Numbered from the stretch's first letter, positions 43,195 to 52,625 are shown. The stretch is DNA of 64,000 bases from Thermoplasmatota archaeon (GCA_038046785.1 JBBSVM010000003.1:211228-275227); one strand, 5' to 3'. Numbers and translations: made by a program. Notes: generated by a model not told the origin, from the letters alone.

Positions 43195-44128
43195 CGGCGG
43201 CGCCCAGGCCCGCCTCGGGAATCGCCTCGACGACGAGAGTGTCGTAGCCGCCCGCGTCGGCGTCACGCAGCGCCGCAAAGAGGCGACGCGCCCACCCGGC
43301 CGCATCGTGGCGCGAGGCGATGACGGTGACGTCGGGGCCGCGCAATCCCGACTCCGTGCTGACCAGCCAAGCGGTCCGAGTCGAGCGGCGCCGCTCCACC
43401 TCCCAGAGCGAACGCAGCGCCGCGGCGGCCACCACGCGCAGCGGTGTCGCGGGAGCGTAGTGGCGATACTTCATGCCAGGCGCGAGCGGCCGATCGCCCG
43501 GCGCGGCGTTGGCCAGCGGCCCGACGATGGCCTCCAGATCACGCACCGGGACGCCTCCCTGGCGCAGCAGAGTCGGGCGGCCATCCGGCCACCCCACCAC
43601 GCTGGACTCCAGCCCGACCGCGCAGGGGCCGCCGTCGAGAATCAGGATGGAATCGCCCAAATCGGCGGCGGCATCCGCGGCGCGTGTCGGACTGGGGCGG
43701 CCGCTCACATTGGCGCTTGGTGCCGCAAGGGCCAACCCGGAAGCGCGCAGGACCTGCTGGAACACGGTGTGCGCAGGAACGCGCAGAGCCACCGTGTCGA
43801 GACCCGCCGAGCAGGCGGGCGCGGTGACGTTCGAGCGTGGAACGACGAGCGTCAATGGACCGGGCCAGAACCGCTTCGCCAACTCCAGCGCACCGGGGGG
43901 CCACAACCCACTCACCGCCTGGGCGTGGGCGAGGTCGCGGCAGTGCACGATGACCGGGTTGTCGCTGGGGCGTCCTTTGGCGATGAAGATGGAGCGCACG
44001 GCCATCTCGTTCGCGGCGTCGGCGGCAAGACCATAGACGGTCTCGGTTGGAAGCACGACGAGCCCACCGGAGCCCAAAAACTTGGCCGCCTCCGCAACTG
44101 TGGCTGAGTCCGGAACGCGCACACTCAC
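43160..44128 (-). CDS. tsaC: L-threonylcarbamoyladenylate synthase (Sua5/YrdC/TsaC family)
   Basis: YrdC motif VVLPTETVYGL and a Sua5 C-terminal domain. GTG start at 44128, 4 nt after the purK stop. Confidence 0.8.
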   Translation of the reverse strand: MSVRVPDSATVAEAAKFLGSGGLVVLPTETVYGLAADAANEMAVRSIFIAKGRPSDNPVIVHCRDLAHAQAVSGLWPPGALELAKRFWPGPLTLVVPRSNVTAPACSAGLDTVALRVPAHTVFQQVLRASGLALAAPSANVSGRPSPTRAADAAADLGDSILILDGGPCAVGLESSVVGWPDGRPTLLRQGGVPVRDLEAIVGPLANAAPGDRPLAPGMKYRHYAPATPLRVVAAAALRSLWEVERRRSTRTAWLVSTESGLRGPDVTVIASRHDAAGWARRLFAALRDADAGGYDTLVVEAIPEAGLGAAVMERLRKAASS

Positions 44129-44132
44129 GGTG

Positions 44133-45263
44133 TCACCGCGCGGTTTGGAGGCGGCCGTGCAGGGCTTCAGCCGTCCGAAGGGCAGACGGGGCGTCGTCGG
44201 CGATGACCAGAATGTGGCCCATCTTGCGACCCGGCCGGGCCACTTTCTTTCCGTAGAGATGCAGGTGCGCTCCCGGCTCGGCGAGCACCGGGTCCCAGTG
44301 CGGCGGCCCGGAGGCGGGCCAGAGATCCCCAAGGAGATTCAGCATCACCGCGGGCCGCAGCCAACCCGCATCGCCAAGAGGGAGACCACAGATGGCGCGC
44401 AGATGCTGCTCGAACTGGTTCGTGGCCGCAGCGCCAAGTGTGGCGTGGCCCGAGTTGTGGGTGCGCGGTGCCACCTCGTTGATGAGCAGCTTGTCCCCGA
44501 CAAGGAACAGCTCGACGGCGGCGACGCCGACGTGGCCGAGCGCCGCAACGGTGCGTGTGGCGATGGCGAGCGCCTCGTCTGCGATGGCCTGCGGGACACC
44601 CGCCGGGACCTGCGTGGTGTGCAGGATGCCATCGCGGTGGACATTGCGCGCGAGAGGCCAGGCAGCGACCGCTCCGTCGGGGCTGCGTGCGAGGACGACG
44701 GAGAGTTCTGCGTCGAACGGAACGAACGCTTCGAGCACCGCGGGGTGCGGCTGCTTGGCCCAGGCGGCCTTCGCTTCGGCGACCGTTTTGATGCGGACCT
44801 GGCCCTTGCCGTCGTAGCCGCCCTTCCGCGTTTTCAGGATGGCCGGGGCTCCCACCTTGGCGAGACCGGACTCCAAGGATGCGAAGTCGTCCACGGCGGC
44901 CCATGCTGGCTGCGGCAGGCCGTGCGCTGCGAGGAACTTGCGCTGCGCGAGACGGTCGTTGATGTTGCGCAGAACCGACGCACCGGGGCGAACAACGCGC
45001 GTCTTTGCGAGCGCCTCCAGAACGTCGGCGGAGACATGCTCCGTCTCAATCGTGACGACGTCGCAGCCCTCCGTCAGGCGCAGAGCCGCCTGCACATCGG
45101 ACAAAGGTGCCGCGAGGAACTTGTCGGCGCGTGTCGCGCAGGGCGCCTCGGGGTCGGGGTCGAGGACGTGGACGCGGTAGCCCATGCGGCGCGCCTCGGT
45201 GAGGAGCATCGCGCCGAGCTGGCCGCCGCCCAGGATGCCGATGGTGGAGCCGGGCCGAATCAC
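44133..45263 (-). CDS. purK: N5-carboxyaminoimidazole ribonucleotide synthase
   Basis: ATP-grasp protein with N-terminus [12 protein letters not shown]. Overlaps the purE stop. Confidence 0.85.
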
Positions 45264-45742
45264 AGTTTCTCACCCAGGACGCGGTCCCGTTCCGCGTCGC
45301 GCCGCGCCTGCAGACGGGCGCGCAGCTTGGCATCGTGCAGGGCCAGGACTTGGGCCGCAAGGAGAGCTGCATTGGCGGCTCCGGCCGGGCCGATGGCGAG
45401 GGTGCCAACCGGAACACCCTTGGGCATCTGCACGATGGAAAGAAGCGAGTCCTGACCGCTGAGGGCTTTCGACTGGACGGGAACGCCAAACACCGGCACG
45501 AGCGTCATGGAGGCGGTCATGCCGGGAAGGTGGGCGGCACCGCCGGCGCCTGCGATGATGACTTGCAGCCCGTTCTTCTCGGCGGCACGCGCATACTCAA
45601 CCAGGCGTTCAGGTGTGCGATGAGCACTCACGACGTGTTTCTCGTACACAACGCCGAGCTCGTCGAGAATCTCCGCGGCCGCCTTCATGGTCTCCCAGTC
45701 GCTGGAACTGCCCATGATGATGCCGACGCGCGCGGAGGCCAC
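45260..45742 (-). CDS. purE: N5-carboxyaminoimidazole ribonucleotide mutase
   Basis: Motif [14 protein letters not shown] and AHRTP, characteristic of PurE. Confidence 0.9.
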
Positions 45743-45821
45743 GGTGGGCCACCGGCGGGCCGGTTAAAGAACACGGGGCTGACGAGCGCGAGACGGGGCG
45801 GGACGGGGGAGGAAGCGGTCT

Positions 45822-46028
45822 TCACCAGGAGGTGACGACCTTGACGTTGCCCGCGTTGTCGGCTTCCTTGATGGTCACGCCGTGCTGGTTCTTGGCGTGC
45901 GCCGTCGCCGCCTTGATGACCTCGTTGCGGTCGTGGCTGCGAAACAGTCCGGCACAGTCTACGCCGACGTCGGCGCAGGCAATCTGGTAGGCTTGGCGCT
46001 TGGGTTGGGATTTGCTGAACAGGCCCAT
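45822..46028 (-). CDS. DUF1059 family small protein
   Basis: 68 aa. The motifs CADVGVDCAGLF and AHAKNQHG match the DUF1059 pattern. Shares its MGLF N-terminus and upstream ATGTGACCAC context with the 49880-50182 peptide gene. Confidence 0.6.
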   Translation of the reverse strand: MGLFSKSQPKRQAYQIACADVGVDCAGLFRSHDRNEVIKAATAHAKNQHGVTIKEADNAGNVKVVTSW

Positions 46029-46105
46029 GGTGGTCACATGCCCGAGCGGGCGCAGGGGAAGGAAACCTTCTGCGGATGAACCCTTGGGCGCGGTTCCCAG
46101 GATCG

Positions 46106-47533
46106 TTAGTAGGAGTCGCGGCTGAAGCCGTGGCTGCCTTTCGAACTGCGGCCACCGCTGCTCCGTCCGCCGCTGCTGGCGCGTCCGCGGTTGAAGCTCG
46201 CCTTGGCGCGCGGGCCGCGACCGCCTTGCCGGCCGAAGCCGCCCTGCGGTCCGGCGCTCGGAGCTTTGCGTGCGTGGTGGCCGCCCTCGTGGGGCTGGCG
46301 GGTGGGCTGGGCGTGGCCTTGCGTTCCCTTGTAGTTCACGGCCGCTTTGCCCAAATCGGGACCAACGGGGCCTTCGGTGGGCAGCGGGCCGATGTCGTGG
46401 CGGGGAATCTGCAGGCCGGCGATGCGTTCGATGGTGCGCCAGTCGTGCGCCTCGTCGGACTGGACAAACGTGAACGCCTTCCCGGTGCGGCCCATGCGGC
46501 CGGTGCGGCCGATGCGGTGGACGTACGCCTCGGGCTCGTCGGGCAGGTCGAAGTTGATGACGTGTGTCAGCTCGGGGACGTCGATGCCGCGCGCCGCGAC
46601 GTCGGTGGCGACGAGCAGGCGGGCGTCGCCCTTGCGGAAGGCGTCCATGGCGCGCTCGCGTTGGCCTTGGCTCATGTTGCCCTGCAGCGGCACCGAGGTC
46701 CAACCCTTCGTCTGGAGCTGTTCGGCAAGCCGCTTGGTGAGGTGCTTGGTGCGGCAGAAGACGATGCCGCGCTCCGGCTGCTCCTGGTGCAAGAGAACGA
46801 GGAGGGCGCGGTTCTTGTCCACCTTTTCGACCTTGAGCATGCGCTGCTCGGTGAGCGTCGTGGTCTGCGGGCCGGACTCGACCTTGACCTTGACGGGATT
46901 CTGCAGCATCTTGTCGGCAAGCTTCTGGATGGGCTGCGGAACCGTTGCGGAGTAGAAGCCGGTCTGGCGTTTGGCCGGGAGGTGGCGCAGGATGCGTTCG
47001 ACGTCGTGCACGAAGCCCATGTCGAGCATGCGGTCCGCCTCGTCGAGGACGAGGATTTGCACCTGGTCGAGCTTGAACATGCCTTGGCCGAGGTAGTCGA
47101 TGAGGCGGCCGGGGGTGGCGACGAGGAGGACGGTGCCGCCGGCGCGCAGGTCGTGCGTCTGCTTGCCGTAGCCAACGCCGCCGTAGATTTCGACGACGCG
47201 GAGGCGGCTTGCCTTGGCAATCTCGCGGCACTCCTCAGCGACCTGAATGGCCAACTCGCGCGTGGGCACGAGGACGAGGCCGACGATGCCTGGGAGGGAG
47301 CCGCTGCGCAGGCGGTCCACGATGGGGATGCCGAAGCTGGCGGTCTTGCCGGTGCCGGTGCGCGCCTGCGCGAGAACGTCGCGGCCGGCGAGGAAGGGGC
47401 CGATGGCGGCCGCTTGGATGGGGGTCGGAGTCTCGTAGCCCATCGCAACGATGGCGTCGAGAGTTCCAGCCTGGAGAGGCATCTGGTTGAACGTGGCGAA
47501 GGTCGCGGTGGCGACGGAGGGGGTGGTGGACAT
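46106..47533 (-). CDS. DEAD-box ATP-dependent RNA helicase with Gly/Arg-rich C-terminal tail
   Basis: Q-motif, AQARTGTGKT, PTRELA, DEAD, SAT and HRIGRTGR motifs. Tail GGFGRQGGRGPR...SGGRSSGGRSS. Confidence 0.85.
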   Translation of the reverse strand: MSTTPSVATATFATFNQMPLQAGTLDAIVAMGYETPTPIQAAAIGPFLAGRDVLAQARTGTGKTASFGIPIVDRLRSGSLPGIVGLVLVPTRELAIQVAEECREIAKASRLRVVEIYGGVGYGKQTHDLRAGGTVLLVATPGRLIDYLGQGMFKLDQVQILVLDEADRMLDMGFVHDVERILRHLPAKRQTGFYSATVPQPIQKLADKMLQNPVKVKVESGPQTTTLTEQRMLKVEKVDKNRALLVLLHQEQPERGIVFCRTKHLTKRLAEQLQTKGWTSVPLQGNMSQGQRERAMDAFRKGDARLLVATDVAARGIDVPELTHVINFDLPDEPEAYVHRIGRTGRMGRTGKAFTFVQSDEAHDWRTIERIAGLQIPRHDIGPLPTEGPVGPDLGKAAVNYKGTQGHAQPTRQPHEGGHHARKAPSAGPQGGFGRQGGRGPRAKASFNRGRASSGGRSSGGRSSKGSHGFSRDSY

Positions 47534-47682
47534 GGGATTCCGGGTCGGCGAAGGGCGCCGCCCTGGCCCGGGAATCTCCCGTGTTGCAGACGTGCCTTCT
47601 GTCCCACCGAAGTGGAAAGCGAAGGGGCGGCGCCGTCTGCGGCCAACCTACTGACTTGGGCTCCGCCGCAGCGGGCGGCCCG

Positions 47683-48279
47683 TTAAGCCTGCCGGTCGGC
47701 CAAAGCGAGCACGCGCTCCACTTCAGGCCGGATGCGCGCTTCGAGAATGCGGTAGCCCGCCGCGTTGGGGTGGTAGCCGTCGCGCGTCGTGGCGGCATCG
47801 TCCAGGAGCCCAGCGATGGCGTCGAGGACGAGGCCGGTGCCGTGCCGCGCGGAGAGATCGCGAAGCGCCGCGTCGAAGTTCTCCTGGAACGCGGCGTAGT
47901 GGACGCCTACGAGGACGACCGGGATGCCTGCGAGCCGCGTCAGGATGGCGTCCAGCCCCGCCGCCGCCTCGGCAACGGTGTCACCGCGAAACGCCTCGTT
48001 CACGCCGAACTCGACGATGACGAGGCGGGGATTGTGGCGCAGAACATCGCGCTCCAAGCGGGGAAGTGCTTCGTGCGCGGTCTCGCCGAGCCGACCGGCG
48101 TTGACGACCGGAATACCCAGGCTCGCTTCCATCAAGGCGGGGAATGCCTCGCTGCGGCGCGCCGTGGTGCCCTCCGTGTAGGAGTCGCCGAACGCGACGA
48201 TGGGCCGATCGCTGCGCGAAGCGGCCAGCCCACTCGTGAACCAGCCCGAAACGAAGAGCAGGGCGAGGAGGACGCGCAT
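47683..48279 (-). CDS. Secreted SGNH/GDSL hydrolase (esterase)
   Basis: Signal peptide, then FGDSYTEG (catalytic Ser block I) and DGYHPN (block V). The start at 48279 is 4 nt after the upstream stop. Confidence 0.7.
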   Translation of the reverse strand: MRVLLALLFVSGWFTSGLAASRSDRPIVAFGDSYTEGTTARRSEAFPALMEASLGIPVVNAGRLGETAHEALPRLERDVLRHNPRLVIVEFGVNEAFRGDTVAEAAAGLDAILTRLAGIPVVLVGVHYAAFQENFDAALRDLSARHGTGLVLDAIAGLLDDAATTRDGYHPNAAGYRILEARIRPEVERVLALADRQA

Positions 48280-48283
48280 GCCC

Positions 48284-49033
48284 TCACGGTGCCAGAAGGC
48301 CGAGGCGGCGCAGGTCGCGCAGGCTGGTGCGGACTGCCTTGGCACCAAAGCGGGGGGCGAGGGCCGCGACGACCTGATCGGGGGTGCGTTTCCCGGTAGC
48401 TGCGTTGAGCAGACTTTCGGCGACCGGTTCCAGCTTGTACACCTCGACGTCGTCCGGTTCGCGGACCAAAGCAGTGGGGTAGCGGCCCTCCGGCGCTTCA
48501 AGGGTCACGCCGTGCAGAAGCTCATTGGGGTCGTGGCGCAATCGAAGCAGCACGATGCCCGGCGCTTTGGCAAGCTGCTGCGAGCGCTTCGGCTTGACGT
48601 AGGCGCGGTCCATCAACATCATGCCGCCTGCTTCGATGGCGGCAAGGTCGGCAAGCGGACGCGGGATTTTCCCCGAACGGGCCGCCTGCTGCGCCCAGAC
48701 CTTGAACTGCCGCACCTCGGCGCGCGGGTCCTCCTTGGCGTACGGTCGTTCGGTGAAGTAGGTGGCTTCGAGGCCGACGGCCGTGTCCACGGCGGCCACA
48801 CTCTTGGGCAGGTCGCCGCTCAGGTAGCTGAAGCGGTCGATGACGCGCCGGCTTGCGAAGTAGGCGGCGCCTTCCGAGGGCATCTCCGCCAGCAGTTTGG
48901 CGGTGGCTCCGGTGAGGCCGCGCCGCTTCGCGTAGGCGGCGGGTTTGGCCTGGAAGGCGGCGAGCTGGGCTGGCTCCATGAGGAGGGCAGCGAGGGCGGA
49001 CTGCAGCTTCGCAAGTTGCGCGTCTGGGGTCAT
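48284..49033 (-). CDS. DUF2063-family protein (partner of DUF692 MNIO enzymes; MbnC/TglI/BufC-like)
   Basis: 249 aa with N-terminus MTPDAQLAKLQSALAALLMEPAQ. Its start overlaps the DUF692 stop (ATGA). Assignment rests mainly on the near-universal DUF692-DUF2063 gene pairing plus N-terminal similarity. Confidence 0.55.
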   Translation of the reverse strand: MTPDAQLAKLQSALAALLMEPAQLAAFQAKPAAYAKRRGLTGATAKLLAEMPSEGAAYFASRRVIDRFSYLSGDLPKSVAAVDTAVGLEATYFTERPYAKEDPRAEVRQFKVWAQQAARSGKIPRPLADLAAIEAGGMMLMDRAYVKPKRSQQLAKAPGIVLLRLRHDPNELLHGVTLEAPEGRYPTALVREPDDVEVYKLEPVAESLLNAATGKRTPDQVVAALAPRFGAKAVRTSLRDLRRLGLLAP

Positions 49034-49872
49034 GCGCCAGCGGCTCCCTGCATGAGTTTGTCCGCTTTGCGCAGCTCGCCTTCGAGCCGTTTCAAGCTGC
49101 CGAACGTCTGGTCGCGCTCGATGAGGAGCGCGCGGACGTGGCTGGTGTCGATGACCTGCTTGGTGAGTTTCCACACCTCGGGGTGGACAGCAGCGCCGTG
49201 CGTGTCGAGGAGCTTGCCCGCGACCCACTCCGAACCGGCGAGGTGGAACTGCACGAGCCGCTCGAGCGGGAACTGGTCGAGGTAGCGCTGCGGGTCCCAG
49301 CCAAGATTGGCCGCGTTGTTGCGCAGGTTCGTGACGTCGAGCAGGACACCGCAGCCGGTTTTTGCCGCCACCTCGGCCATGAACTCCGGTTCGGTGAAGT
49401 CGTTGCCGGGGAACTGGAAATACTGGCTGATGTTCTCGATGAGGAAAGGGATGCCGACCGCATTCTGCACGGTCTTGACGTTGGCGACCACGGCGGCGAG
49501 ACTCGCCTCCGTGTAGGGGATGGGTGTGAGCTGGCCGATGGTCTGCTTGCCGATCTTGGTGAAGCAGAGGTGGTCGCTGCACCACGGCACCTTGAACTGC
49601 CGGTTGATGGGGACCATTTTGCGCAAGAAGCCGCGGTCGGGGCCGGTGGCGGTGCCAACACTCAGGGTGACACTGTGCGTCACGACCGGTCGGTCGCGGG
49701 TGTCCTCGAGAAGGTCCGCCTTGCCCGCCTCCGAGGTGTCGAGGATGTGTTCCGGCATCACCTCGAGGAAACCGAGTGGAATCCCGGGGAGGCGATAGAA
49801 ATCGCGAATGGCGCGCCGGTAACCAAGACCTGCACCAAGAAAAGGAAGGGAAGAGGGAGAAAGGGAGGGCAT
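49030..49872 (-). CDS. DUF692 / UPF0276 family multinuclear non-heme iron oxidase (MNIO; MbnB/TglH/BufB-like)
   Basis: 280 aa with family-typical motifs: PWCSDHLCF, TGCGVLLDVTNLRNN, HLAG, LLDTHG, ALLIERD, in TIM-barrel order. Confidence 0.85.
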   Translation of the reverse strand: MPSLSPSSLPFLGAGLGYRRAIRDFYRLPGIPLGFLEVMPEHILDTSEAGKADLLEDTRDRPVVTHSVTLSVGTATGPDRGFLRKMVPINRQFKVPWCSDHLCFTKIGKQTIGQLTPIPYTEASLAAVVANVKTVQNAVGIPFLIENISQYFQFPGNDFTEPEFMAEVAAKTGCGVLLDVTNLRNNAANLGWDPQRYLDQFPLERLVQFHLAGSEWVAGKLLDTHGAAVHPEVWKLTKQVIDTSHVRALLIERDQTFGSLKRLEGELRKADKLMQGAAGA

Positions 49873-49879
49873 GACAGCC

Positions 49880-50182
49880 TTACTTGGCCTTCTTGGCGGG
49901 GGCCTTGGCCGAGCCGCACGACTTGGCGCTGCCGCAGCTCTTCGCAGAGCCGCAGGACTTCGCCGAACCGCACGACTTCTCGGGGGCCTTGGCCGAGCCG
50001 CAGGACTTCGCCGAGCCGCAGCTCTTGGCGTCGCCCTTGGCGGAACCGCAGCTCTTGGCGGAGCCACAGGACTTCGCCGAGCCGCAGCTCTTGGCGTCGC
50101 CCTTCGCGCTACCGCAGCTCTTCGCAGAGCCGCAGGACTTGGCCTTGTCATCCTTCTTTTTGCCGATACCAAAGAGTCCCAT
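49880..50182 (-). CDS. Repetitive Cys-containing peptide (putative MNIO/RiPP precursor): MGLFGIGKKKDDKAK-(SCGSAK)11 with GDAK/APEK spacers
   Basis: 100-aa ORF whose stop lies 7 nt before the DUF692 start. 11 near-identical 18-nt repeats. GC3-rich codons on the minus strand. Start context shared with the DUF1059 gene. Confidence 0.6.
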   Translation of the reverse strand: MGLFGIGKKKDDKAKSCGSAKSCGSAKGDAKSCGSAKSCGSAKSCGSAKGDAKSCGSAKSCGSAKAPEKSCGSAKSCGSAKSCGSAKSCGSAKAPAKKAK

Positions 50183-50448
50183 AGTGGTCACATCCGTGTT
50201 GGCGACCCCATCCCGAAGGAGTGGGCCGGCAGAACGTTTGTCTGCAACCGAACGAAGTTGGGGTGGGTATGAAAGGCTTGAGGCGTGGGTACGGATTCCA
50301 CAGCGTTGTTTCCTCCTGGAAAACACTCCTTTCGTTGCGCGAAAAGAGCCATCGGGCTACGAAGTTCGTTTCGCTGGTTGCCGAGGGGAGCCGCTGGGCG
50401 TTTCCATCGTCCCCAAACCCTTCATCCCAACCTCGCCTCGGCCGCTTG

Positions 50449-51671: not shown

Positions 51672-52625
51672 TTGATGCGCTCGATTGCCGTCGCCCTCCT
51701 GCTGTTGCTGGCCTTGCTTGCCGGCTGTGCCACGAAAGCTCCCGCCGACCCGACCGCGGCGGCAGAACCCGCCGCAGCGGAACCGGTCACCGAGGAGCAG
51801 GCGTTCGCTGCGCAGGAGCCCGCCGCGCAGGAAGCCGCCAACAACGGCACGCTTGAGGGCGCGCGTGAGTTCTGCGAGAGCGCCGACGACTGCACCTACT
51901 GGGACAACCTGTACCACCAGTACGTCGTGTACGACCTTGACACCACCACGATTGATGTCGTGCTGGTTCCCCCCGTGGGCGCCCCCGACCAGATTGCCGC
52001 CCAGCGCCTCGCGGTGCAGCAGTGGGCCGACGGCATCGAAGCGCTCGCCGCCCCCTGGTTCCGCGACGCCTTCCAGGTCAACGTCTACGCTGTCGGCGTC
52101 GACATCCCCTCCATTGATGCGGTGTCGGACCCTGAAGTGGTCGTCATCTCCACCTCCGCCGTCGGCCTCGTCGGCATCGGCCTCGAGCCCAAGCAGCTCG
52201 CCTGCCAGATCATCGAAGGCGGCGCGATGCGCGCCGACTACGGCGGCCACAGCCACGACGGCAACGAAGTGTTCGCGGTGGACTGCACCGGAACCGGCTT
52301 CGTCTGTTTCGCCCTCAACGTCGGCGGCGCCGACGCGTTCGCCCTTTACGACCTGGTCGCCCACGAAGTTGGCCACTGCCTCGGCGCCGGCCACGTCGGC
52401 GACGCGCTCGACTTCCGCGCGCGCTACGCCCCGGTCGAGGACATCATGAGCTACCAGAACAACGCGACGAAGGTGCACTGCGTCAGCAACATGAACGTCC
52501 GCGTCCTCGAAGGCGTGTACGGCCACCTGCTCGGCCGCCACCCGGACGACCTCCTGCCGCGCGGCTCCTACTTCCCCTTCCCGCCCGCCCTCTACAAGCA
52601 GGCGGAGTGCGCCAACCCGGCGTAA
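51672..52625 (+). CDS. Metzincin-like zinc metalloprotease lipoprotein
   Basis: LLAGC lipobox and HEVGHCLGAGH (HExxHxxGxxH). Confidence 0.6.
   Translation: MMRSIAVALLLLLALLAGCATKAPADPTAAAEPAAAEPVTEEQAFAAQEPAAQEAANNGTLEGAREFCESADDCTYWDNLYHQYVVYDLDTTTIDVVLVPPVGAPDQIAAQRLAVQQWADGIEALAAPWFRDAFQVNVYAVGVDIPSIDAVSDPEVVVISTSAVGLVGIGLEPKQLACQIIEGGAMRADYGGHSHDGNEVFAVDCTGTGFVCFALNVGGADAFALYDLVAHEVGHCLGAGHVGDALDFRARYAPVEDIMSYQNNATKVHCVSNMNVRVLEGVYGHLLGRHPDDLLPRGSYFPFPPALYKQAECANPA

Follow-up and report, generated by a model that had tools for sequence, protein, structure and literature searches.

A predicted multinuclear iron oxidase cassette with a cysteine-repeat precursor peptide in Thermoplasmatota archaea

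Background

Does an archaeal oxidase act on the cysteine-repeat peptide that is encoded directly upstream of it, and if so, what might the product do? The question is raised by a stretch of 64,000 nucleotides from a Thermoplasmatota archaeon (GCA_038046785.1 JBBSVM010000003.1:211228-275227; the whole stretch is hereafter called the window), in which four minus-strand open reading frames (ORFs) encode a small peptide with 11 SCGSAK hexapeptides, a multinuclear non-heme iron oxidase (MNIO, DUF692), a putative partner protein and an SGNH esterase (Table 1). Thiooxazole peptides made by MNIOs are emerging as a widespread bacterial answer to copper stress, and have been described only in bacteria, as Sec-exported products with DUF2063 partners. 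An earlier note, made from the DNA alone, had read the four genes as a candidate MNIO system for a ribosomally synthesised and post-translationally modified peptide (RiPP). The MNIO and partner cassette and the repeat peptide as substrate candidate have stood up in the present analysis, whereas the inclusion of the SGNH esterase, the DUF2063 label and the supposed unusualness of the substrate have not.

We consider it rather probable that the locus is a three-gene RiPP-type cassette of precursor, MNIO and partner, the product of which would, by analogy with characterised systems, be a cytoplasmic poly-thiooxazole that binds soft metals.

Table 1. Coordinates of the predicted cassette, the gene downstream of it and the elements of its upstream region
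Feature	Position in window	Strand	Description
Precursor peptide gene	49880..50182	-	100 aa; MGLFGIGKKK recognition-like N-terminus, 11 x (K)SCGSAK, Lys-rich C-terminal tail
MNIO (DUF692) oxidase	49030..49872	-	280 aa; predicted TIM barrel, complete multi-iron ligand set
MNIO partner protein	48284..49033	-	249 aa; N-terminal helical DUF2063-like domain (~1-141), C-terminal winged helix of RiPP recognition element (RRE) type (~155-249)
SGNH/GDSL hydrolase	47683..48279	-	PF13472 E 3e-22; hydrophobic signal-like N-terminal segment
Shine-Dalgarno-like site GGATGTGA	50188..50195	-	5 nt before precursor ATG
Second hairpin, variable sequence	50203..50228	-	Directly after the first hairpin; CGGC...GCCG-type stem in relatives
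Conserved block CGTTCGGTTGCAGACAAACGTTCTGCCGG	50226..50254	-	Inverted repeat GCAGAC-N5-(G/T)TCTGC at 50229-50245
TATA-like element TTTCATA	50268..50274	-	~20 nt upstream of the conserved block; putative function, from position only

The repeat peptide and its gene

The four genes are tightly coupled, with spacers of 7, -4 and 4 nt, and both these and the coordinates first given were reproduced from the sequence. The 100-aa peptide opens with MGLFGIGKKKDDKAK and then carries exactly 11 SCGSAK units, as the earlier note had counted. The units are not strictly contiguous: they stand in blocks of 2+3+2+4 with GDAK, GDAK and APEK as linkers, and APAKKAK closes the peptide (in the gene, Tandem Repeats Finder detects periods of 18, 30, 48 and 66). 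The 11 copies of the hexapeptide are written in 9 DNA versions with nucleotide differences that are all synonymous, and both repeat serines swap between the TCN and AGC codon families. Because nine DNA versions with only synonymous differences encode a single hexapeptide, the pattern of substitutions indicates that the repeat is far beyond chance, and that the precursor frame is translated and under strong selection at the protein level.

That the repeat ORF might be a chance open frame in GC-rich repetitive DNA could be suspected from the many long spurious ORFs which a high GC content yields in all frames, and from look-ups of the exact precursor sequences (three alternative starts, seven relatives), none of which is in the protein collection searched. 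This explanation is effectively refuted by the synonymous-only differences among the 11 copies, two-step serine codon switches included, by a frame, N-terminus, motif and C-terminal KKK which are kept in 17 peptides despite diverged DNA, by a Shine-Dalgarno-like site at a fixed distance, and by the gene callers, which nonetheless called the ORF in the ENA, JGI and NCBI assemblies. With regard to the start codon, ATG 50182 (100 aa) is preferred over GTG 50326 (148-aa ORF) because the Shine-Dalgarno-like site lies at a fixed distance from the former and is common to most relatives: GGAGRTGA-like sites at the same distance from the start are present in most of the 16 archaeal loci described below.

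There were no matches of the window precursor to Pfam or NCBIfam, and ten archaeal and bacterial precursor peptides searched against NCBIfam gave no significant family. A query with the peptide against 5.8 billion proteins returned a single match (P0133), probably as a result of low complexity, and reading the upstream ORFs from the loci of relatives was more informative than searching for homologous peptides. The window precursor has no hydrophobic N-terminal segment, its maximum 12-residue hydropathy being -0.23 versus 2.2-2.7 in bacterial Sec-type relatives, which bears out the absence of a signal peptide noted before.

Co-occurrence of peptide and oxidase in archaea

Sixteen non-redundant archaeal loci with sequence upstream of the MNIO gene were compared. 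All of them (16/16) contain a homologous small ORF either 6-22 nt upstream of the MNIO gene or overlapping it by 4 nt, and a partner gene comes next after the MNIO gene wherever a locus extends downstream. The precursor architecture is held across MNIO identities from 84% down to 47%, and consists of an N-terminus of the form MG-phi-phi...[F/W]-G-x-K-K, 3-15 copies of KSCGSAK, KDCGSAK, MSCGSAK, KSCSSGK or QKSCSTA, and a Lys-rich tail with a terminal KKK, at lengths ranging from 41 to 154 aa. Counted over 17 peptides, all Cys residues (101/101) fall within the motif K(86%)-S/D-C-G/S/A-S/T-x-K; a Lys is located at -2 in 86% and at +4 in 75%, and is never adjacent to the Cys, while the residue after the Cys is always small (G, S or A). 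None of the 17 archaeal peptides contains a hydrophobic segment (maximum 12-residue hydropathy <= 0.34). With a related peptide in every locus and a single Cys motif throughout, the repeat peptide encoded upstream is the obvious candidate substrate, as had been proposed.

It is very unlikely, in our estimate, that the repeat peptide is not a substrate, and is instead a metallothionein-like or Lys-rich polyanion-binding protein in a shared operon, with the MNIO acting on another peptide or on a small molecule. Such an arrangement would be in keeping with the ability of unmodified Cys repeats to bind metals and with the faint, non-significant likeness of the Lys/Ala/Pro-rich precursor tails to a histone H1-like model (E 0.05), and the modification of the peptide is itself deduced by analogy; it sits poorly, however, with the co-occurrence and translational coupling of peptide and MNIO in 16/16 loci, with the peptide-binding nature of the RRE domain in the partner, with the lack of any other conserved small Cys-bearing ORF near the MNIO gene in the loci examined, and with the order precursor-MNIO-partner, which is the commonest arrangement of genes in MNIO clusters (PMC12452194).

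The MNIO enzyme

The product of the second gene matched PF05114 (MbnB_TglH_ChrH) with 255 bits (cut-off 25, E 8.9e-76) over model positions 1-262 of 263, and the PWCSDHLCF, TGCGVLLDVTN, HLAG and DTHG motifs are all present. The iron ligands of MbnB (H54, H90, E133, D163, N166, H192, D208, H210 and E239; PMC9060507) align to H66, H101, E146, D179, N182, H210, D223, H225 and E252 of the window MNIO, where the pairing of H66 with H54 was taken from the alignment to cpMbnB (7dz9) and the numbering offset, the OB3b alignment beginning at residue 73. All nine positions are invariant in 27 clade members and 19 further relatives. A profile of the 27-member clade searched against PDB retrieved 3BWW (a DUF692 family protein, E 4.5e-50), 8HCI (TglH, E 7.7e-33), and the MbnB structures 7DZ9 (E 2.3e-18) and 7TCR (E 1e-10), while the AF2 model of the window MNIO (pLDDT 94.4, pTM 0.92) gave 3BWW (E 1.3e-20), TglH (TM 0.84) and MbnB (TM 0.78) in a Foldseek search. 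Judged by family match, motifs, ligand set and model, the protein is a bona fide MNIO, and the DUF692 identity proposed earlier is borne out. A further residue, D254, is also invariant in the clade members checked and aligns with the Asp of ERD/EWD; we read it as the counterpart of FonB-D249, the proposed catalytic base (PMC13097082).

Among the curated NCBIfam models, BufB (NF050167) scored highest with 215.3 bits (cut-off 310), followed by HvfB (NF003818) with 178.5 bits (cut-off 360), ApyH with 119 (400), ChrH with 42 (600) and MbnB with 41 bits (325). Both BufB and HvfB are thiooxazole-forming.

The partner protein

An ATGA overlap couples the partner gene translationally to the MNIO gene. 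The earlier note had labelled the partner DUF2063, a label which has to be replaced by that of a DUF2063-like fold without the Pfam signature: searches with PF09836 (DUF2063) and PF22106 (NGO1945_C) found nothing at E <= 0.01 in the window partner, nor in 10 other archaeal partners, while the partners in 7/10 bacterial Sec-type relatives pass the DUF2063 cut-off. At the C-terminus there is a weak PqqD/RRE match (E 1.2e-3, below cut-off). The high-confidence structure model has TglI and NGO1945 (3DEE) as its nearest folds, with the RRE domain included, at a sequence identity to TglI of only ~13-16%; a profile of the partner searched against PDB by sequence brought up no meaningful match (the best, a phage adaptor, at E 0.09), and only the fold comparison worked. 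The family is small, with 52 representative clusters at E <= 1e-3 among 1.84 billion representatives.

Antoine et al. 2025 (PMC12452194) recognise a PME-type 2 partner by its position directly after the MNIO gene, the lack of a DUF2063 signature, and a helical domain related to NGO1945 (3DEE) and TglI, with or without an RRE. By position, signature and modelled fold, the window partner is a TglI-like protein of this type. Such partners are reported to go with signal-less precursors (PMC12452194), and the window cassette fits this pairing. The statement that all characterised systems use a DUF692/DUF2063 pair does not hold either, as the DUF2063 signature is absent from MbnC, TglI and ApyI (PMC12452194).

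Bacterial relatives and the origin of the cassette

The nearest non-archaeal MNIOs, at ~40% identity, belong to Streptomyces and other bacteria (our loci L071-L073), and are of a leader type, with signal-less precursors that carry CGCGYCYCGGGGCHCAMC or CIICIVCIICVVC cores, and with Pfam-less partners that have a similar N-terminal sequence. Unlike the archaeal precursors, theirs consist of a long leader with a single compact Cys-rich core in place of Lys-rich tandem repeats, and no characterisation of these PME-type 2 clusters was found in the literature searched. As a side observation, each of these clusters (L071 2838-3050, L072 401-694, L073 3020-3268) holds, besides the precursor gene, a further conserved small ORF, a partner that lacks any Pfam signature and a gene for a large glycosyltransferase, and the compact Cys cores of the Streptomyces and other leader-type precursors read CGCGYCYCGGGGCHCAMCLA and CIICIVCIICVVCS.

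At ~31-38% identity follow the MNIOs of Bdellovibrionota, Obscuribacterales and other bacteria, which have precursors with Sec or lipoprotein signals and KKCSG-like repeats, and mostly DUF2063 partners. Within this group, the precursors of the Bdellovibrionota loci (L013-L031) carry a Sec signal and (E/D)KKCSG repeats; four bacterial metagenome loci (L055, L057, L058 and L065) form a lipid-anchored variant of the repeat design, with lipoprotein-signal precursors (…AVACGG…), GKSSCSAGG or KKSCSG repeats, a BufB-scoring MNIO and a DUF2063 partner.

With the BufB model, bacterial Sec-type relatives reach 256-352 bits, versus 214-233 for the archaeal and leader-type groups (223-233 for the other members of the archaeal clade). 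In a rough neighbour-joining tree the archaeal MNIO clade is monophyletic, has the leader-type group as its sister and stands away from the Sec/PME-type 1 group. By these comparisons, the cassette combines an enzyme and partner of the leader-type lineage with a substrate design like that of the Sec-type repeat precursors.

Proposed chemistry, location and function of the product

We propose that the C-terminal RRE of the partner would bind the conserved N-terminus of the precursor, which is the sole conserved part outside the repeats, and that the helical domain would dock on the MNIO, in analogy with TglHI, MbnBC and HvfBC. With O2, the multi-iron MNIO would then perform a four-electron oxidation of each repeat Cys, iteratively along the peptide, with 5-thiooxazole as the most likely product (a shift of -4 Da for each Cys, adding up to as much as -44 Da in the window peptide). 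FonB is reported to prefer a small residue after the Cys (PMC13097082), which the archaeal repeats fit. As there is no signal peptide, and no protease or transporter in the cassette, the product would most likely stay full-length, either cytoplasmic or attached to anionic surfaces by its Lys-rich ends, and may act as a poly-dentate buffer for a soft metal, probably Cu(I). The host presumably lacks a periplasm.

Several points weigh against this proposal. The requirement of MNIOs for O2 is one of them. Modification, chemistry and metal binding are all deduced from sequence and models, the leader of 10-15 residues is short for recognition by an RRE, and no copper gene is present in the whole 64-kb window. 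The window MNIO lies below the curated cut-offs of both BufB and HvfB, and the residue after its catalytic Asp is Gln, a position occupied by Phe in the Lys-Cys group and by Asp in the Cys-Lys group (PMC13097082). Furthermore, the precursors of the sister bacterial group have CGCGYCYC... or CIICIVC... cores, for which no chemistry was found in the literature.

The chemistry is the main uncertainty, because the closest relatives are uncharacterised, and a transfer of the thiooxazole assignment is less safe because the archaeal clade is sister to the leader-type MNIOs and not to the Sec/PME-type 1 thiooxazole group. The same cassette and substrate could serve another MNIO chemistry, such as formation of an oxazolone and thioamide as in methanobactin, beta-carbon excision as by TglH, or cross-linking or another oxidation of Cys, in which case no thiooxazole metallophore would be made. 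This we regard as unlikely: MNIOs catalyse many different reactions (PMC12452194, Table 1), the partner fold is closest to TglI, and both the sister position to uncharacterised clades rather than to BufB/HvfB and the scores below both equivalog cut-offs leave room for it, but TglH needs a C-terminal Cys added by a PEARL enzyme, for which there is no gene at the locus, the BufB and HvfB models far outscore those of MbnB and ChrH, and the pattern of thiooxazole substrates is one of internal Cys residues that precede a small residue within Lys-rich repeats (PMC13097082).

With regard to location, the earlier note had seen no transporter nearby, and inspection of the window neighbours and of the relatives' loci agrees. 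Copper, DoxX, transporter and protease genes were sought among ~40 window ORFs and none was linked to the cassette; no DoxX or protease gene adjoins it in the window or the relatives examined, and no transporter is kept next to it across seven loci. Export of the modified peptide by an unlinked or unknown route, to act as an extracellular chalkophore-like or protective metal binder like the periplasmic bufferins and oxazolin, has in its favour that no characterised thiooxazole peptide acts within the cytoplasm (PMC12452194, PMC11252979), that methanobactin precursors are also signal-less, yet are exported by dedicated transporters, and that a major facilitator superfamily (MFS) transporter gene lies three genes downstream in L001. 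We nevertheless hold it to be quite improbable, since the peptides have neither a signal peptide nor a hydrophobic segment, a leader protease and a conserved adjoining transporter are missing from the loci just mentioned, and the MFS gene of L001 sits among sugar-phosphatase and glycosyltransferase genes and is absent elsewhere.

For the cytoplasmic product, a more far-reaching scenario is possible but on balance doubtful, namely that a non-exported, protein-sized poly-thiooxazole serves in the cell as buffer or store for Cu(I) or a different soft metal, that the PME-type 2 lineage converged independently on the repeat design of the captophorins, and that an upstream inverted repeat (see below) controls expression.

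Relation to known systems

The earlier note considered a repeat-type substrate highly unusual, yet this is a large known class: HvfA has three AEGKCGEGKCG repeats with six Cys modified by HvfBC (PMC11252979), FonA carries seven 5-thiooxazoles (PMC13097082), and Buf_EGKCG/oxazolin comprises ~2,000 proteins with up to 58 Cys as the third-largest MNIO precursor family (PMC12452194). The oxazolone/thioamide assignment for oxazolin has since been revised to 5-thiooxazole, and the class, with >24,000 MNIO-PME1 loci, has been named captophorins (PMC13097082; bioRxiv 10.64898/2026.06.05.730506). With these systems (HvfABC of Haemophilus influenzae, FonABC of Fontimonas thermophila, gonophorin) the window cassette shares a small Lys-rich precursor followed by an MNIO and an RRE-containing partner, many Cys, all in short tandem repeats and followed by a small residue, and presumably iterative processing. 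They differ in being bacterial (mostly Pseudomonadota), with a Sec signal, a PME-type 1 DUF2063 partner and often DoxX, whereas the window system is archaeal and has no signal peptide, no DUF2063 signature and no DoxX. Their motif is Lys-Cys (EGKCG) or Cys-Lys, versus K-S/D-C-G/S-S/T-x-K with Lys at -2/+4 here, and the window MNIO, ~100-180 bits under the family cut-offs, would belong to another branch. As to class membership, a captophorin locus combines an MNIO with a PME1 partner, and the window has the MNIO with a partner which is not PME1 by signature; captophorin precursors are of DUF2282, Lys-Cys or Cys-Lys type, and the window precursor is Cys-rich and repetitive with Lys never adjacent to Cys; the conversion of Cys to 5-thiooxazole and the Cu-associated function that also mark the class are, for the window peptide, part of our proposal. 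Similarly, Buf_EGKCG/oxazolin is defined by a Sec signal and EGKCG repeats, and the window precursor has neither signal nor EGKCG motif.

Bufferins (BufABC) share the top-scoring model, and the conversion of Cys to Cu-binding heterocycles on a protein-sized product would be a second likeness if our proposal holds, but bufferin precursors are folded, Sec-exported proteins of DUF2282-type/Buf_6/12Cys families without tandem repeats, and have DUF2063 partners. Methanobactin (MbnABC) has a signal-less leader-type precursor and an MNIO whose nine iron ligand residues are the same, and there too Cys is turned into a Cu ligand, as may be the case here; it differs in an MbnC of another family, two Cys per short core, and dedicated export, import and tailoring genes, and the MbnB model scores the window MNIO poorly, as given above. 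In TglHI (pearlin/3-thiaglutamate, Pseudomonas syringae), the beta-carbon of a single C-terminal Cys, PEARL-added to a scaffold, is excised, whereas the archaeal Cys residues are internal, at 3-15 per peptide.

Bufferins and oxazolins are Sec-exported, and the described Cys-repeat and thiooxazole systems are all bacterial (PMC12452194, PMC11252979, PMC13097082). Neither the MNIO landscape paper with its supplements nor a survey of archaeal RiPPs nor full-text searches yielded an archaeal MNIO system, in agreement with the earlier remark that MNIO systems are essentially uncharacterised in archaea. What appears to be new is the combination of an archaeal host, a precursor without signal peptide, a type-2 partner, a separate MNIO clade under the BufB/HvfB cut-offs, the K-S/D-C-G/S-S/T-x-K motif, no nearby DoxX or transporter, and a conserved upstream inverted repeat; on the literature searched, it would give the Cys-repeat MNIO peptide systems their first archaeal version, signal-less and with a PME-type 2 partner. 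It is not a new principle, the enzyme family, partner fold and repeat-substrate idea all being established. If the proposal is true, it would extend thiooxazole chemistry to archaea with its first cytoplasmic member, uncouple the repeat-substrate design from Sec export and the DUF2063 partner, and add the first archaeal MNIO RiPP to the short list of archaeal RiPP classes; the compact three-gene system with its 3-15 repeat sites would also be handy for studying iterative MNIO processing and recognition by type-2 partners.

The upstream non-coding region

The leader of the cassette (50203-50274, minus strand) is shared with L003, L004, L005, L052, L066-L069, L006 and L008. It contains an invariant block, CGTTYGGYTGCAGACRAACGKTCTGCCGG, with the inverted repeat GCAGAC-N5-GTCTGC; the block columns are invariant in an 8-locus alignment, and the block is more conserved than the proteins. 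The six pairs of the inverted repeat are kept in 11 loci, with a GCAGAA/TTCTGC double change that preserves complementarity. A second hairpin of variable sequence follows the block in most loci, and the TATA-like element has the variants GAAATA, GATATA, TGAATA and CTTAT in relatives. The 64-kb window holds no second convincing copy of the inverted repeat that would point to a regulon, and Rfam gave no family for the upstream region, only a chance mir-26 match (E 0.27). The conserved block may be either an operator that overlaps with the start of transcription or a structure in the 5' untranslated region (the first hairpin).

In the distant KSCSS subgroup a different element is present at the same place, CGTTCGG-N9-CCGAACGTTCGGCC, which holds the perfect palindrome CGAACGTTCG (at ~L007 3780-3830, L009 2125-2175, L064 900-950 and L053 3780-3830). 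In three relatives, and not in the window, the precursor is immediately preceded on its strand by genes for a FIST-domain protein and a sensor kinase of PAS-PAS-HisKA-HATPase architecture (L066 1740-4559, L068 1650-4500, L069 829-3735), and this pair could be a regulatory module.

Genomic setting and neighbouring genes

Window proteins are 100% identical to NCBI entries from a Candidatus Thermoplasmatota archaeon metagenome-assembled genome (MAG), with MEK6985450 for the partner, MEK6985451 for the MNIO and MEK6985449 for the SGNH hydrolase, and the 64-kb window also encodes an A-type ATP synthase operon and two proteasome subunits, which confirms its archaeal origin. The nearest loci are in Thermoplasmata/Thermoplasmatota MAGs from groundwater and soil. 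Among relatives the order purT, cassette, DEAD helicase, purE is kept, and the GC content is unremarkable; this conserved position together with the normal GC content leads us to reject recent horizontal transfer, and argues for the cassette having been passed on vertically within a Thermoplasmatota lineage.

The fourth gene was correctly named before as an SGNH hydrolase with a hydrophobic N-terminus, but its place in the system is not supported: it does not follow the partner gene in any of the six relatives examined (L001, L066, L067, L068, L069, L070), one of them 88% identical, which carry S6PP, DEAD helicase, purE or NYN genes at this position, and it is inserted between cassette and DEAD helicase only in the window genome among those examined. 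Given this lack of conservation we reject a role as tailoring enzyme, and the SGNH esterase is probably a passenger. The 4-nt spacer suggests that it is co-transcribed with the cassette despite this.

At 65-70% GC, many long spurious ORFs lie opposite real genes (44082-47686 and elsewhere), for instance 46076-47686 (+) and 45822-47231 (-), which overlap the DEAD helicase; real frames were told apart by a GC3 above 0.8, and ORF length alone is no evidence for a gene here. Between the DEAD helicase and purE, 45822-46028 (-) encodes a DUF1059-type Cys-containing protein of 68 aa which is syntenic in L066 and L068. It starts with MGLFSK, and the resemblance to the precursor N-terminus is probably a coincidence, as the motif is not kept in the L066 and L068 homologues. 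Finally, adjoining purT on the strand opposite to the cassette, 51672-52625 (+) encodes a predicted lipoprotein-like secreted metallopeptidase, which shows a lipobox-like signal (LLAGC), a metzincin motif (HEVGHCLGAGH) and a weak match to Reprolysin_4 (E 1e-4).

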